From: Dehalococcoidia bacterium
GTDB taxonomy: Bacteria; Chloroflexota; Dehalococcoidia; Bin125
Assembly: GCA_965220315.1 (NCBI GenBank)
Contig: CBDCPP010000001.1
Location: 972,806 to 1,036,805 of the forward strand
Length of the DNA: 64,000 nt
Direction: 5' to 3'
Part shown: positions 18,063-25,486 of the stretch, in pieces
Position numbering within the stretch: the stretch's first letter is position 1
How the letters are laid out: each line of letters starts with the position of its first letter
The notes under the pieces: model-generated
Told to the model about the DNA's origin: nothing
Database searches by the model: none
Seen by the model: only the letters and a program-made list of their open reading frames with translations
Translations under genes and position numbers: made by a program

Positions 18063-18138
18063 GGGCCGCTAGCTCAATTGGAAGAGCAGCTGACTCTTAA
18101 TCAGCCGGTTGTAGGTTCGAGTCCTACGCGGCTCACCA
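18063..18138 (+). tRNA. tRNA-Lys (anticodon CTT); integration target of the adjacent element
   Basis: GGGCCGCTAGCTCAATTGGAAGAGCAGCTGACTCTTAATCAGCCGGTTGTAGGTTCGAGTCCTACGCGGCTCACCA. Cloverleaf with anticodon loop CTCTTAA and encoded CCA. Confidence 0.92.
18093..18138 (+). repeat. attL core, which is the 3' half of tRNA-Lys and is repeated at 25441..25486 and 26262..26306
   Basis: 46-nt segment ACTCTTAATCAGCCGGTTGTAGGTTCGAGTCCTACGCGGCTCACCA. Direct repeats downstream have 3 and 4 mismatches. Confidence 0.8.
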
Positions 18139-18218
18139 CCCACCCCTCGCGATTTCCCTAGCGCCGTAGGGAAATCGGCACACCCCACCCCGCTGGAAGT
18201 GGCACGGGCGTTCCCGCA

Positions 18219-18240
18219 TGCCACTCGCGTGCCACTCCCT
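18219..18240 (+). repeat. TGCCACTCGCGTGCCACTCCCT motif near attL, with the inverted copy GTGGCACG at 18199; candidate integrase arm-type site
   Basis: A near-identical 20-nt motif TGCCACTCCCGTGCCACTCC recurs at 25319..25338, about 100 bp inside attR, in the same orientation. Confidence 0.4.
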
Positions 18241-18278
18241 GCTGTCTCGCGGGGGCACGCCCGCCGTAGTCTTGGGCT

Positions 18279-19381
18279 ATGCCCCGCTCCCGCTCCGGCT
18301 CCAAGCGCCCGCCCGGTTCTGGCTCCGTTCGCCAGTTACGGCCGGGCGTCTGGCAGGCCCGCTGGTCCGTCGGCAGCGGCCCCGGACGCCGTTATCTGTC
18401 CGAGGTGATCCACGGCACGAAGGCTGAGGCGGAGGCGCTCCTGCGGCACTGGCTGGCCGAACGGGAGCGGACGCGCGGCCTCAGCGGCCTGGCCGGGAAC
18501 CCGCACCTGACCGTGGAGCAGTGGCTGCGTCACGCCTGCGCCCCGGTACCCTGCGCAGCTACACGAACATCGTCGAGGTGGAGCTCATCCCCGGTCTGGG
18601 ATCGCGCCGCCTCAATCGGCTGGCCGTGGGCGACTTGCAGGCCTTCTTCCACACGCTGGCGGACCGTCCCCACTGGCGGCGCTTCGTCCGCTCCGTGCTG
18701 CGTTCGGCCCTGAGCGAGGCGGAGCGCCAGGAGCTCGTGCCCCGCAACGTCGCCCGCCTGGTGCGGCTGCCCACGCCCCCGCGCAAGGAAGTGCAGCCGC
18801 TGACGGAGGAGCAGACGCGGGCGTTCCTGCGGGCCGTCGAGGGGGACCGCCTGGAGGCGCTCTACAAGCTGGCGATCGCCACGGGCATGCGCCAGGGCGA
18901 GTTCCTGGGCCCCACCTGGCCGGACGTCGACCTCGAGGCGGGCACGCTCGCCGTACGGCGCAGCCTCAAGTACTACCACGGGGGCTACCACCTCGACGCC
19001 GTGAAGACGGACCGCTCCCGCCGCACGCTGACGCTGGCTCCGCCGCTGGTGACGGCCCTGCGCCAGCACCGACGGGCGCAGATCGTCCGCTCCTCCTGGC
19101 GACTGGTCTTCGTCACGCGGAACGGGCAGCCTCTGAACGGCACGAACGTCACCCACACGCTTCAGCGCCACCTCGCGCGGGCCGGGCTCCCCCGCATCCG
19201 CTTTCACGATCTGCGCCACGGTGCCGCCACCTACTTGCTGGGGGCGGGCGTGGGCATGAAGGAAGTCTCGGACCTGCTGGGCCACCAGCAGATGAGCACC
19301 ACGGCCGACATCTACGCGCACACGCTCCCGGAGGCGCGGCGGGTAGCCATGGATAAGCTCGCGGACGTGGTCTTCAGCTAA
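18279..19381 (+). pseudogene. int: tyrosine-type site-specific integrase with a frameshift. N-terminal arm-binding domain 18279..~18530; catalytic core 18521..19381 in another frame
   Basis: ORF1 ...GVWQARWSVGSGPGRRYLSEVIHGTKAEAEALL...TVEQWLRHA is a phage-integrase N-terminus. ORF2 (GTG 18521) LRPGTLRSYTNIVEVELIPGLG... carries R...HDLRH...Y (RFHDLRHGAATYLL, ADIYAHT). The two overlap in different frames around 18500-18540. Confidence 0.85.
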
Positions 19382-19507
19382 CTGCGGGCTCCGGCTGGTC
19401 AACGATGCCAACGAGAAAATCGAAGTATTCCTATTGGCTGAGCTGGGTACTCGCTTGCACTAAACTCGGCAGGAGTCGGCTCGAAAATCAGACCACGAGA
19501 AGGCGAG

Positions 19508-19846
19508 ATGCTTCCTGAGACCTTTTGGAACGACGTACCGCCGCTCGACATCATTGAGTACGCGAACAACGTTGAAGCAGAGAGCTCCGTGGCCGACGCG
19601 ACCACTGCTAGAGACTGTGAAATCCAAGCCCTGTGCAAGCTCCACCTCATACGAACTGGGGCAGAGCCAGAGATGATGAAGGAAACCGTACAGTCGAGGG
19701 TCAATACCCGGAGGCTTTTCTTCGGAGAGTGGACCAACGACGGCGGCCCGTTCTCAGAAGAGGAAGTGCTCAACCTACGCTCGCAGGTCAAGCCGTGGGC
19801 ATTCCCTCCGGATTTCAGGTCCTTGCTGGCCGAAATCTTCGTATAG
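19508..19846 (+). CDS. hypothetical protein (island cargo, lower-GC)
   Basis: 112-aa ORF in an AT-richer segment right after the integrase. No recognisable motifs. Confidence 0.35.
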   Translation: MLPETFWNDVPPLDIIEYANNVEAESSVADATTARDCEIQALCKLHLIRTGAEPEMMKETVQSRVNTRRLFFGEWTNDGGPFSEEEVLNLRSQVKPWAFPPDFRSLLAEIFV

Positions 19847-23431: not shown

Positions 23432-23502
23432 CCGGTCGTACTTGCTTCCGCGGTAAATTTCATTACAAGCGGGGAGCAGTTCGCCAGTGAAGCGAGGCTA
23501 AC

Positions 23503-25242
23503 GTGCGAAAGTGGACGCTCGGAGTGATGGCCATGGTGTTGGCCATGGTGTTGGCCGTCTCGACCCTCACCAGTGTCGCCGCCCAAGAGGAGCCCCCTGA
23601 GCCCGAGACTGCGAACGTCGACGTGACCGTGTGGCGTCTCGTCGCTGACCCATCCCTGTTGTATGTCAGCACACGTCCCGAGGGCGGCAGCTGGCGGACC
23701 TTGAATACGCCCCTGGACATGTCGGCCTTGAGCAGTTCGGGTAACTTCCACCAGAGCAATGCCGTGCGGGTGCGGGTGCCTCTGACGGGTGGCGGAGCAG
23801 CGAACGTCGACGTGACCGTGTGGCGTCTCGTCGCTGACCCATCCCTATTGTATGTCAGCACACGTCCCGAGGGCGGCAGCTGGCGGACCTTGAACACACC
23901 CCTGGACATGTCGGCCTTGAGCAGTTCGGGCAACTTCCACCAGAGCAATGCCGTGCGCGTGGCGGTGCCCCTGGCAGCGCTCCCCACCTACACGTGCATC
24001 GAGGCATCAGGACATTCCCCCCTGCATAGTGCGGTGCATGCGACTAACACTCAGCTTGTCAGAGTTATCGCTGCCTCATGCCCACAATACTTGGACCGGG
24101 TGAGCGACAATTACTTTTACGATCAAACACCACTCAGCCTTGCAATTGGGCGCGGGGACTCAGGAATAGTACAAATTCTCATAAATGCTGGTGCCGACCC
24201 TGATACGAGAATCAATCCCGCATTCAGGGTCGGGACACACCTCACCTATGCCATTGGGTTGAATGAAGACGAGATCGTCCAGATTCTCCTCGACGGGGAT
24301 GCGGACCCCAACGTCATCGACACAGAACAGTTCTACAACCAGACGCCACTCAGTCTGGCGATTGAGGCTGCCAACGAAGACCTATTGCGGAACCTGATCG
24401 CCGCAGGCGCAGATCCCAACCAGAAGATCAATCCTGCCTTTAGGGTTGGGACCCACTTGACCTATGCGGTTGGACTGGGCGACACAAATGTCGTGCAGAT
24501 TCTCCTCGACGCCGAGGCGGATCCCAACGTCATCGACACGGAACAGTTCTACAACCAGACGCCACTGAGTCTGGCGATTAAGGCTGCCAACGAAGACCTG
24601 TTGCGGAACCTGATCGCCGCAGGCGCAGATCCCAACCAGAAGATCAATCCTGCCTTTCGGGTTGGGACCCACTTGACCTATGCGGTTGGACTGGGCGATA
24701 CAAATATCGTGCAGATTCTCCTCGACGCGGAGGCAGATCCCAACGTCATCGACACGGAACAATTTTATGACGAATCACCCTTGAGCCTTGCGGTCAAGGC
24801 TCAAGACGAGGCGATGGTGCGTATTCTCGTCGATGCAGGCGCGGACCCTAATCAGAAACTGGATCAGTTCAATGACGTAAGTCCGCTCGATATCGCAAGC
24901 GAAGAAGGCTATACGGAGATTGTGCAAATTCTCCTCGCCGGGGCCGCGAGTGTTCCCCCTGGAGAGGCGCCCGAACCGTCCTCAAGCACGCCATCACCAC
25001 CCCCAACCTCCACGGACGGTGATTGCACTGTCGGCCTCGTGGTCAGTGCTGGCGAGAGTTGCGCCTACCCGGGTACGTCGGCCGAGTTCTCGGTGGACAG
25101 CGCCGGACGCGGACACTTCCTGGTCTTCACATCCGGGACCTCAATCTCCCTCCAGGATGCACAAGTCAACGGTGTTCCGTACAACTTCGAGGCCAGCCGA
25201 CAAGCCGACGGAACCTGGATCATCACAGCGGTTGGGAGTTGA
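23503..25242 (+). CDS. secreted ankyrin-repeat protein. Signal peptide, duplicated 63-aa N-terminal module, at least 6 ANK repeats, Pro/Ser/Thr linker, and a roughly 70-aa C-terminal domain with two Cys
   Basis: MRKWTLGVMAMVLAMVLAVSTLTSVAAQ signal. ANK consensus (TPLSLAIKAANEDLLRNLIAAGADPNQ). Near-identical nucleotide tandem duplications inside the gene. Confidence 0.85.
   Translation: MRKWTLGVMAMVLAMVLAVSTLTSVAAQEEPPEPETANVDVTVWRLVADPSLLYVSTRPEGGSWRTLNTPLDMSALSSSGNFHQSNAVRVRVPLTGGGAANVDVTVWRLVADPSLLYVSTRPEGGSWRTLNTPLDMSALSSSGNFHQSNAVRVAVPLAALPTYTCIEASGHSPLHSAVHATNTQLVRVIAASCPQYLDRVSDNYFYDQTPLSLAIGRGDSGIVQILINAGADPDTRINPAFRVGTHLTYAIGLNEDEIVQILLDGDADPNVIDTEQFYNQTPLSLAIEAANEDLLRNLIAAGADPNQKINPAFRVGTHLTYAVGLGDTNVVQILLDAEADPNVIDTEQFYNQTPLSLAIKAANEDLLRNLIAAGADPNQKINPAFRVGTHLTYAVGLGDTNIVQILLDAEADPNVIDTEQFYDESPLSLAVKAQDEAMVRILVDAGADPNQKLDQFNDVSPLDIASEEGYTEIVQILLAGAASVPPGEAPEPSSSTPSPPPTSTDGDCTVGLVVSAGESCAYPGTSAEFSVDSAGRGHFLVFTSGTSISLQDAQVNGVPYNFEASRQADGTWIITAVGS
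23611..23975 (+). repeat. 2 x 189-nt near-identical tandem duplication inside the ankyrin gene (63-aa module ANVDVTVWRLVADPSLLYVSTRPEGGSWRTLNTPLDMSALSSSGNFHQSNAVRV)
   Basis: Copy 1 from 23611 and copy 2 from 23800, with only about 5 nucleotide differences. Confidence 0.85.
24291..24800 (+). repeat. 216-nt tandem repeats (2 full copies plus a partial third), each encoding a pair of ankyrin repeats
   Basis: Units start at 24291, 24507 and 24723. Copies 2 and 3 are nearly identical at nucleotide level. The antisense ORF 24382..24762 is an artefact of this repeat. Confidence 0.85.
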
Positions 25243-25318
25243 GCGAGTTCCCGCGAACGAGTGAACCCGCTGATAGAGAGCGTTCATGGGCTCCTTCGTC
25301 AAGGGGGTCGCGTCGCTT

Positions 25319-25338
25319 TGCCACTCCCGTGCCACTCC
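25319..25338 (+). repeat. TGCCACTCCCGTGCCACTCC, second copy of the att-proximal motif
   Basis: Matches 18219..18240 at 19 of 20 positions. Sits about 100 bp inside attR. Confidence 0.4.
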
Positions 25339-25440
25339 TTTGGAGGCGCGGGCGGCGGGGGACGGGCCAGAATCAGCTGGTACTCGCTTTGATAGCCCGA
25401 CGCGGACCCGGCCTCGGGCTCCCAAGGCGGTTGAGCGAAT

Positions 25441-25486
25441 ACTCTTGATCAGCCGATTGTAGGTTCGAGTTCTACGCGGCTCACCA
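25441..25486 (+). repeat. attR of element A: direct repeat of the tRNA-Lys 3' half (3 mismatches in 46)
   Basis: ACTCTTGATCAGCCGATTGTAGGTTCGAGTTCTACGCGGCTCACCA, compared with the tRNA segment 18093..18138. Confidence 0.8.

Follow-up and report, generated by a model that had tools for sequence, protein, structure and literature searches.

Probable remains of two successive insertions of a small integrative element at the tRNA-Lys(CTT) gene of a Dehalococcoidia bacterium

Introduction

P4-like phage satellites hold, between conserved backbone features, a slot that carries differing anti-phage genes in different copies (PMC9122126). Phages of sponge symbionts encode secreted ankyrin proteins that were shown to dampen phagocytosis by eukaryotic cells (bioRxiv 10.1101/608950). 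Here we describe an island that recalls both systems, located at the tRNA-Lys(CTT) gene of a Dehalococcoidia bacterium (assembly GCA_965220315.1, contig CBDCPP010000001.1, positions 972,806 to 1,036,805 of the forward strand). The whole 64,000-nt stretch is called the window, and coordinates refer to it unless a relative is named. A first-pass annotation, made by a model from the sequence alone, had proposed an integrative element at this tRNA gene with a tyrosine integrase, a far-end repeat and unusual cargo.

Our analysis indicates that positions 18139-26308 are probably the remains of two successive insertions, at tRNA-Lys(CTT), of a family of roughly 10-kb integrative elements from a Dehalococcoidia clade. 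The copy in the window is a decayed remnant with satellite-like ancestry, and its slot still exchanges cargo between strains. An intact relative (L084) has a layout that resembles a phage satellite more closely than any other kind of element considered.

Results

Two further copies of the tRNA-Lys 3' part bound two tandem remnants

The tRNA genes, att copies and arm-type sites of the locus are listed below.

17799-17875, - strand: tRNA-Val(GAC) (ARAGORN and Rfam).
18063-18138, + strand: intact tRNA-Lys(CTT) (ARAGORN; Rfam tRNA model, 67.3 bits).
18198-18238, + strand: candidate arm-type sites on the attL side (repeats D9 and I21; an inverted copy, AGTGGCAC, then two direct GCCACTC).
25319-25440, + strand: P'-side arm region of island A (repeat D9; two direct GCCACTC at 25319-25338; aligned with L084 and L002).
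25441-25496, + strand: attR of island A, repeating the 3' part of tRNA-Lys (46 nt with 3 mismatches; repeat finder and pattern search).
26261-26316, + strand: attR2, the outermost att copy (repeat D4, 80% over 56 nt).
26404-26488, + strand: tRNA-Leu(TAG), beyond the outermost att copy (ARAGORN and Rfam).

The attL core is the 3' 46 nt of tRNA-Lys (18093-18138), running from the anticodon loop to the 3' end of the gene. It recurs at 25441-25486 with 3 mismatches, and 100 dinucleotide-preserving shuffles gave no such match by chance. The likeness between tRNA-Lys and this repeat stretches to 56 nt at 89% identity (repeat family D4). The intact tRNA and the far-end repeat were both part of the first-pass description and were found again here. 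Its central proposal, an integrative element that rebuilds the tRNA 3' end from its own att copy, is supported. The presence of a third att copy at 26261-26316 implies that the inserted DNA ends near 26308 rather than at 25486, and that it comprises two tandem insertions, island A (7.3 kb) and islet B (0.76 kb). The earlier extent of about 7.3 kb therefore holds for island A and falls short of the whole insert.

Comparison of a solute-binding protein encoded in the flank groups the window with MAGs (metagenome-assembled genomes) of Dehalococcoidia/Chloroflexota; exact look-ups of two flanking proteins returned nothing, probably owing to differing start-codon calls. The tRNA-Val/tRNA-Lys neighbourhood is kept in four related loci (L001, L002, L083 and L084), each of which also has an insert at tRNA-Lys (4 of 4). 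In L083 the tRNA-Lys segment is identical to that of the window, and attR2 matches it with 93.6% identity over 47 nt. It is 92.6% identical to the single attR of L084, to which it also corresponds in position. The attR2 copy probably represents the original 3' end of tRNA-Lys, pushed out of place. None of the four syntenic relatives showed an empty tRNA-Lys site, for which the first-pass annotation had proposed to look, and L083 holds the same three att copies, which counts against recent mobility.

Just within both ends of island A lies a 20-nt repeat, TGCCACTC[G/C]CGTGCCACTCC, at 18219-18238 and 25319-25338. In the window, TGCCACTCNCGTGCCACT occurs at 18219 and 25319 only, and none is expected by chance. 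An inverted half-copy of the motif stands at 18198-18205. The P' arm of island A matches L084 12404-12490 (blastn), and its start is also the right edge of the cargo slot described below. GCCACTC motifs are paired in the same way within both ends of the intact L084 element (repeat family D2). The GCCACTC repeats are laid out as expected for arm-type sites and are candidates for sequences that the integrase would bind. Their presence in the intact element shows that the repeat at 25441 is no tRNA pseudogene with independent flanks, an outcome that the first-pass annotation had held would speak against it.

The composition of the insert is unlike that of its surroundings, as first proposed. GC content outside is 0.634 +/- 0.027 (mean of 500-nt windows), and inside it is patchy, ranging from 0.555 to 0.719 (integrase 0.719, ORF112 region 0.555, helicase 0.699, cargo slot 0.592). 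An Rfam scan by E-value over 17000-27500 returned the three tRNAs only, plus two matches far under threshold.

An intact relative of 10 kb

L084 carries perfect 47-nt direct repeats (2504-2550 and 12576-12622), 10,072 bp apart, in the same tRNA-Val/tRNA-Lys/tRNA-Leu locus as the window, the second repeat lying 125 nt before tRNA-Leu. An intact 375-aa integrase comes first, followed by five leftward genes and then a rightward set.

Leftward set, in order: 152-aa membrane protein, 87-aa protein, 197-aa protein, DUF5679 protein, 136-aa protein.
Rightward set, in order: 119-aa protein, 168-aa protein, HTH_31 regulator, 79-aa protein, 530-aa primase, and then the Myb-like gene.

The last two genes of the element are a TIR gene of the ThsB type and a 320-aa gene. 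Among PHROG families, the 197-aa protein matches terminase small subunit (7e-9), the 136-aa protein matches head scaffolding (7.7e-13), and the primase matches phage primases (6.6e-56) as well as Pfam RepB_primase_C (6.7e-6). The 197-aa and 136-aa proteins gave nothing significant in Pfam, in a PDB sequence search or in tblastn against 50,697 phage records. Pfam and PHROG searches of ten L084 proteins and of the window island proteins found no large terminase, portal, major capsid or tail match, and the first-pass statement that the cargo holds no phage structural machinery stands. The same proteins gave no match to a relaxase, FtsK-like translocase or type IV secretion family, and the ten from L084 none to a Tra-like translocase or coupling protein. 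L084 is thus a small element (10,072 bp) with both integrase and primase, and the window copy is without the primase.

A contig from another sample (L085; ena:ERZ28763718:ctg7523, 9,919 nt) matches only the interior of the L084 element, at 100% identity. Its ends lie 88 nt within attL and 19 nt before attR, which suggests presence/absence or excised-form heterogeneity in that sample. An assembler yields such a contig where the element boundaries vary within a population.

Five pieces of the window, and only these, are homologous to L084 in blastn, tblastx and tblastn comparisons.

Piece 1: the tRNAs and the integrase.
Piece 2, 19877-20001: a stub of the 87-aa gene.
Piece 3, 22190-22794: the Myb-like gene together with some 90 nt before it and some 100 nt after it.
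Piece 4, 25319-25487: the P' arm and attR.
Piece 5, 26259-26312: the outer att copy.

Other relatives retain different parts. L001 has the 87-aa gene in full, along with the 3' half of the terminase-small-subunit-like gene, the helicase and a C-terminal fragment of the Myb-like gene, and on this gene content it would represent an intermediate stage of decay. In L002 all that remains is an integrase N-terminus interrupted by a stop codon, a pair of Myb-like copies, cargo of an unrelated kind and the P' arm; its attR is degenerate and fused next to tRNA-Leu. An AIM24-family gene (Pfam 3e-70) lies within the islands of L001 (15575-16249) and L002 (15958-16632) and is missing from the window. It is a further case of a non-element gene lodged in such remnants.

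The integrase of island A is a pseudogene

The first gene of island A is of the family named in the first-pass annotation, but its reading frame is broken.

18279-19381, + strand: tyrosine integrase pseudogene (N-terminal frame 18279-~18534, C-terminal frame 18521-19381).

Its family is clear from Pfam Phage_integrase (1.7e-26) and phrog_1 (4.6e-61), the catalytic residues remain readable in the C-terminal frame, and the product is 88% identical in amino acids to the intact L084 integrase. Alignment with L001, L083 and L084 places a 25-nt deletion after 18534 that shifts the frame and makes the gene a pseudogene. We found no convincing microhomology around this deletion. The integrase of L083 is free of the 25-nt deletion and has a lesion of its own, a 67-nt deletion at L083 ~6417/6418 (window 18888-18954) that removes the ATGMRQGE arginine box. 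The lesions of the two strains are independent and recent, and since they differ, the gene must have been intact in a recent common ancestor and lost twice.

Backbone remnants and replacement genes

Between the integrase and the cargo slot, island A contains the following features.

19508-19846, + strand: ORF112, a low-GC gene with a homologue in L001 and unrelated DNA in its place in L083.
19879-20037, - strand: stub of the 87-aa gene, a 52-codon open reading frame (ORF) that aligns over its final 38 codons (38 aa at 76%, tblastn).
20006-21433, - strand: RhlE/CshA-type DEAD-box RNA helicase (Pfam DEAD and Helicase_C).
21877-22173, + strand: ORF98, upstream of the Myb-like gene (gene call in L082; sub-threshold Pfam matches).
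22277-22702, + strand: Myb-like backbone gene, 141 aa, with an N-terminal Cys cluster and a C-terminal three-helix domain.
22703-22815, no strand: conserved non-coding block of about 113 nt at the left edge of the cargo slot.

The stub is the sole relic of the packaging-side module in the window. Its 125 nt at 19877-20001 are 84% identical to L084 4313-4437 (blastn), and in the intact element the full 87-aa gene adjoins the terminase-small-subunit-like gene. The helicase and ORF112 occupy the place that packaging, regulation and the replication core take up in the intact element. ORF112 has no Pfam, PHROG or NCBIfam match; it shares 65% amino-acid identity with its L001 homologue, at a ratio of nonsynonymous to synonymous divergence (dN/dS) of 0.27. 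The "ORFans" of the first-pass annotation are in this case not strict ones.

The helicase was likewise listed there as unusual cargo, a claim that we reject. Its closest homologues outside island-bearing genomes are 78-79% identical and sit amid housekeeping genes (lexA, holA, trxB, plsX), in ordinary chromosomal neighbourhoods. Within the islands, it is 99.8% identical to L083 and 89.5% to L001 (91% at the nucleotide level in the latter). The gene is under purifying selection (dN/dS 0.32 against L001). Its matches to the NCBIfam CshA and RhlE models are under the equivalog cut-offs. These comparisons speak most for an RhlE gene of host type that landed in a decaying island. The rest of the cargo list (Cys-rich, membrane and ankyrin proteins), like the helicase gene itself, was found again.

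ORF98 could be a small winged-helix regulator: its Pfam matches, both under threshold, are TrmB (0.032) and, for the L083 homologue, HTH_20 (4.6e-4).

The Myb-like protein has a Cys cluster of the form CxxCGGCxxC...SCxxxPxC at its N-terminus and a C-terminal domain at about residues 90-137, which AlphaFold models with a per-residue confidence (pLDDT) >=90 for residues 90-130. Foldseek aligns the modelled domain with c-Myb R1/R2 (TM-target 0.75-0.79, probability 0.8-0.98, E > 0.5). No Pfam family matches the protein, and its best PDB profile match is B-Myb at E = 0.14. On the model, the C-terminal domain is a candidate Myb/SANT-like three-helix domain. The family is small: a set of 5.8 billion proteins yielded 19 members, and a set of 1.84 billion yielded 45 representatives. 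L083, L084, L081, L002 and L087 have the gene, and L001 has a C-terminal fragment of it. Searches of IMG/VR viral contigs with the family alignment and the L084 primase returned no relatives, and a scan of Joint Genome Institute (JGI) metagenomes with the alignment gave one weak match at 41% identity.

A second Myb-like copy (P0007, 72% identical) lies on the window's own 1.53-Mb contig, and the same protein is found on L081 (Logan ERR13602196 contig). The P0007 gene is followed by HEPN/PD-Lambda-3_B-like and PDC-M34A-like genes. The window genome therefore has at least one further member of the family.

The non-coding block at 22703-22815 is 82-90% identical in L083, L081 and L084, and homology stops at the same point in each. 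It is better conserved than the Myb-like gene that precedes it and ends exactly where the variable cargo starts. A structured RNA was considered and rejected (z = 0.82, no covariation or compensatory changes). The block might act at the DNA level, for example as a pac site, origin or promoter.

A variable cargo slot with an ankyrin gene

To the right of this block lies a slot that differs among relatives.

22816-25318, no strand: variable cargo slot, unalignable with L083 (GC 0.592).
22901-23194, - strand: two-helix membrane protein, 97 aa (predicted helices).
23503-25242, + strand: ankyrin-repeat protein, 579 aa (Pfam Ank 3.6e-41).

The left border, at ~22815, is common to L083, L084 and L081; the right border, the first arm-type site at 25319, is common to L083 and L084. 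The slot cannot be aligned with that of L083 despite a right flank that is 99.95% identical. In relatives, it is filled with known or candidate defence genes.

L084 slot: ThsB-TIR, 9e-6 (PADLOC).
L083 slot: NsnB-like AAA ATPase, 1.4e-47, and a 139-aa protein with sub-threshold PIN-domain matches (PADLOC/Pfam).
L081 slot: HEPN/PD-Lambda-3_B-like and PDC-M34A-like genes (PADLOC).
L087 slot: PDC-S58/ApeA-like gene, 3.3e-38 (PADLOC).
L001 slot: type II restriction enzyme and methylase, 8.3e-79 and 3.3e-60 (PADLOC).

The window slot is the exception, holding membrane and ankyrin proteins and no recognisable defence system. The ankyrin protein has a putative Sec-type N-terminus (MRKWTLGVMAMVLAMVLAVSTLTSVAAQ), as judged by eye from the sequence alone. 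The gene has about 20 full-length orthologues at 70-85% identity in Chloroflexota MAGs, and its dN/dS of 0.16 implies purifying selection. It contains two internal tandem duplications (D1 and D2, 94-95% identical), located at 24275-24706 (216-nt units, 94%) and 23611-23973 (189-nt-spaced units, 95%). They double ankyrin units and a 63-aa N-terminal module. By their sequence identity these duplications appear recent, and the repeat array seems to be evolving quickly. The duplicated 63-aa N-terminal module (23611-23973, residues ~37-157) recurs at 65-84% identity at the N-termini of many Chloroflexota proteins, including leucine-rich-repeat (LRR) proteins, trypsin-like proteases and M1 metallopeptidases. 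This module has the look of a leader or anchor for secreted proteins that is specific to the lineage.

The closest ankyrin orthologue (L089, 85%) lies beside terminase-small-subunit-like fragments, an integrase fragment, IS1595 copies, HicAB and a restriction-modification gene. One terminase-small-subunit-like fragment there is 82% identical to the N-terminus of the L084 protein. Another orthologue, in L090, has an ordinary chromosomal setting. From its domains and the literature, the ankyrin protein would be of the eukaryote-like kind that host-associated bacteria use to interfere with host cells. By analogy with the sponge-symbiont phage proteins, we conjecture that it might dampen phagocytosis, and an association of this bacterium with sponges, on which a literature search brought up no paper, is equally a conjecture.

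Mosaic identity with a near-identical strain

L083 is nearly identical to the window on both sides of the island (left flank 98.5%, right flank 99.95% over 7.3 kb) and has the same islet B. Within the island, identity to L083 is mosaic.

17200-19072: 99-100%, bar the two integrase deletions.
19073-19979: diverged or replaced.
19980-21680: 99-100%.
~21680-22830: falls from 97% to 74%.
22815-25319: unalignable.
25320 onward: 99.95%.

Synonymous divergence (dS) from L083 is 0.008 for the helicase and 0.43 for the adjacent Myb-like gene. The simplest reading of this pattern is that the tracts 19073-19979 and ~21680-25319, the latter including the whole slot, were swapped by recombination with other members of the family. 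One crossover would lie before the Myb-like gene, within the backbone; the other would fall either in the P' arm or in attR. Conserved backbone pieces would serve as homology anchors for cargo exchange.

Islet B is probably the remnant of an older insertion

Between attR and attR2 lies a short segment with family features of its own.

25497-26260, no strand: islet B, remnant of the older insertion, identical in L083.
25536-25928, - strand: ORF130, an ORF in islet B.
25931-26105, - strand: C-terminal part of a Myb-like gene, 5'-truncated and inverted (inverted repeat I1, 135 nt, 77%; tblastn 55-76% to family members).

The sequence ACTTTACGTAA occurs at 26173-26183, about 78 nt upstream of the outer att copy. 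It is also present in the P' arms of L084 (~12515-12530) and L002 (~18715-18730), and it is missing from the P' arm of island A, where about 45 nt are deleted. ACTTTACGTAA is palindromic and may be a site for a host factor or excisionase. Together with the Myb-like fragment, it marks 25497-26260 as a relic of an earlier insertion of the same family. From the arrangement of the att copies, islet B appears to be the older of the two, with island A later integrated into the reconstituted tRNA-Lys.

Features flanking the insert

An identical 20-nt stretch, CACCACCACGCTTCGAG[G/A]CG, follows both the outermost tRNA-Lys att copy (26302-26321) and tRNA-Leu (26484-26503; family D10), and the two tRNA 3' ends therefore have a 15-nt trailer in common. 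This trailer may act as a signal for processing or termination, or may stem from a small duplication. Left of the island, 17124-17620 holds overlapping ORFs of 161 and 162 aa on opposite strands (65% GC) between a solute-binding-protein gene and tRNA-Val; L083 has a 143-aa minus-strand gene call without a Pfam match at this site. Just past the island, a 267-aa ORF (27556-28359) without a Pfam match is kept in L083 and absent from the counterpart site of L084, where lepA directly follows tRNA-Leu. The region 26500-31100 may be another lineage-specific insertion.

Discussion

We favour the reading that 18139-26308 holds what is left of two successive insertions of one element family, and we consider it well founded. 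An incoming element would bring a copy of the tRNA 3' part in its attP; this copy would complete the tRNA at attL, and the previous tRNA 3' end would be pushed downstream as attR. The intact element would comprise an integrase with arm sites at both ends, a leftward operon of terminase-small-subunit-like and capsid-related genes, a rightward HTH/primase/Myb-like operon, and a cargo slot between the conserved non-coding block and the P' arm. Most likely it would replicate as an episome after excision and be packaged by a helper phage. In the window, the packaging, regulation and replication modules appear to have been lost and the integrase frameshifted; the island is for these reasons probably fixed in place and vertically inherited, and probably unable to move by itself.

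Several points weigh against this account. Its satellite component rests on two PHROG HMM hits in a relative, to which Pfam, PDB and phage tblastn searches lend no support. IMG/VR viral contigs yielded no relative of the primase or the Myb-like protein, and a helper phage is not known. The packaging-like genes adjoin the integrase and point leftward, an order unlike that of phage-inducible chromosomal islands (PICIs) and P4. Simple tandem integration does not explain the inverted Myb-like fragment in islet B. With no empty site seen, mobility is deduced only from the perfect repeats of L084, and recombination is deduced from the mosaic identity pattern. Finally, L083 is a contig of 3x coverage and L001 a long-read MAG, so that small indels may be assembly errors, chiefly the 1-nt indel in the L001 integrase.

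The phage-related matches of L084 bear on two alternative origins for the family. It could consist of integrated plasmid-like or mobilisable elements, akin to integrative and mobilisable elements or actinomycete integrative and conjugative elements (IME/AICE-like), with a RepB-type primase and spread by conjugation or mobilisation rather than as satellites. The RepB_primase_C match of the 530-aa protein is to a plasmid-type primase domain, and both the empty IMG/VR search and the lack of backing for the terminase-small-subunit and scaffolding assignments in PDB and phage databases would suit such an origin. Against it, none of the ten L084 proteins scanned resembles a relaxase, translocase, coupling protein or type IV secretion component, the PHROG matches to terminase small subunit, head scaffolding and phage primases point to a phage-linked lifestyle, and an anti-phage cargo slot is the pattern reported for P4-like satellites (PMC9122126). 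We regard this origin as unlikely. The phrog_1 match of the integrase and the capsid- and terminase-related PHROG matches in L084 would also be seen if an ordinary prophage had lost its structural genes. The intact element measures only 10,072 bp between perfect att repeats, however, and its ten scanned proteins include no large terminase, portal, major capsid, tail or lysis family; one holin-like Pfam match in L084 is under threshold (E 0.041, 14.4 bits against a 28.4-bit cut-off). A degenerate prophage is barely credible on this evidence.

A different question is whether island A could still move, using the integrase of a sibling element in trans and a helper phage for packaging. Island A keeps both arm-site clusters and both att cores, a second family member (P0007) is on the same contig, the independent and recent lesions of the window and L083 integrases mean that the gene was intact until recently, and cargo differs between near-identical strains. 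These features are outweighed by others: the primase, terminase-small-subunit-like and capsid-related genes are absent, and one of the three attR mismatches falls in the anticodon-loop segment of the expected crossover. L083 shares the same att triple and islet B, which means that the boundaries have not moved; the change of cargo is accompanied by a divergent Myb-like allele (dS 0.43), a better fit to homologous recombination than to re-integration; and no empty site occurs in the four relatives. Present mobility is, in our judgement, highly improbable. The first-pass idea of a helper-dependent element fits the intact L084 and is right as history. As an account of the present it is wrong: the window copy has a dead integrase, lacks the modules and has an attR with 3 mismatches. 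The reading as a remnant of two insertions is the one that we carry forward.

The intact 10-kb relative defines a lineage-restricted, satellite-like element family in Dehalococcoidia, and the searched literature contains no satellite from this phylum; no paper was found that names both 'phage satellite' and 'Chloroflexi'. Through the slot, the traffic of anti-phage cargo is linked to the spread of possible symbiosis factors, namely eukaryote-like proteins. The comparison with L083 further indicates that an element can be dead and yet go on exchanging genes, as a hotspot for homologous recombination with its live relatives, which bears on the turnover of accessory genes in uncultivated symbionts. 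We further suggest, tentatively and as a proposal that may well prove wrong, that elements of the L084 type are the first phage satellites described in Chloroflexota, a new family with a Cys-rich Myb-like backbone gene. Its slot would circulate anti-phage and secreted ankyrin cargo among host-associated Dehalococcoidia, and dead copies would persist as landing pads for recombination.

Comparison with known systems

The locus shares with classic tRNA islands of tyrosine integrases an intact tRNA with an adjoining integrase, a far-end repeat of the tRNA 3' part, arm repeats inside both ends, patchy composition, and tandem accretion with the oldest att copy outermost. It differs from them in that the integrase is a pseudogene and that the island is present, at varying stages of decay, in every relative examined, with no empty site found.

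L084 is in turn comparable to PICIs, P4-like satellites and virion-encapsidated integrative mobile elements (VEIMEs; PMC9618062, PMC8628076). Like them, it is about 10 kb in size, with a tyrosine integrase, a primase, an HTH regulator and site-specific insertion. It has no detectable virion genes, and the genes that PHROG profiles liken to terminase small subunit and head scaffolding would extend the resemblance. Unlike them, it has its packaging-like genes pointing leftward beside the integrase, a lineage-specific Myb-like backbone gene and a host in the phylum Chloroflexota, and no AlpA, Sid/Psu/Delta or CpmA/B homologue was detected. From the window copy all these modules are gone.

As in P4-like hotspots, the family has a bounded slot with differing defence genes (restriction-modification, TIR, HEPN, an ATPase with a possible PIN partner, ApeA-like) that are exchanged between close strains. 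The window departs from that pattern in that its slot holds secreted ankyrin and membrane proteins and its carrier is a dead remnant. In this cargo it is like the 'Ankyphage' ANKp (bioRxiv 10.1101/608950), where an ankyrin protein with a signal peptide is also the cargo of a phage-related element, and relatives of the bacterium likewise encode many eukaryote-like proteins. The carrier here is a satellite-like remnant and no phage, and the two are likened by description. Overall, objects of this kind are well known. What appears to be undescribed is the element family, together with its Myb-like backbone gene and its presence in Dehalococcoidia.

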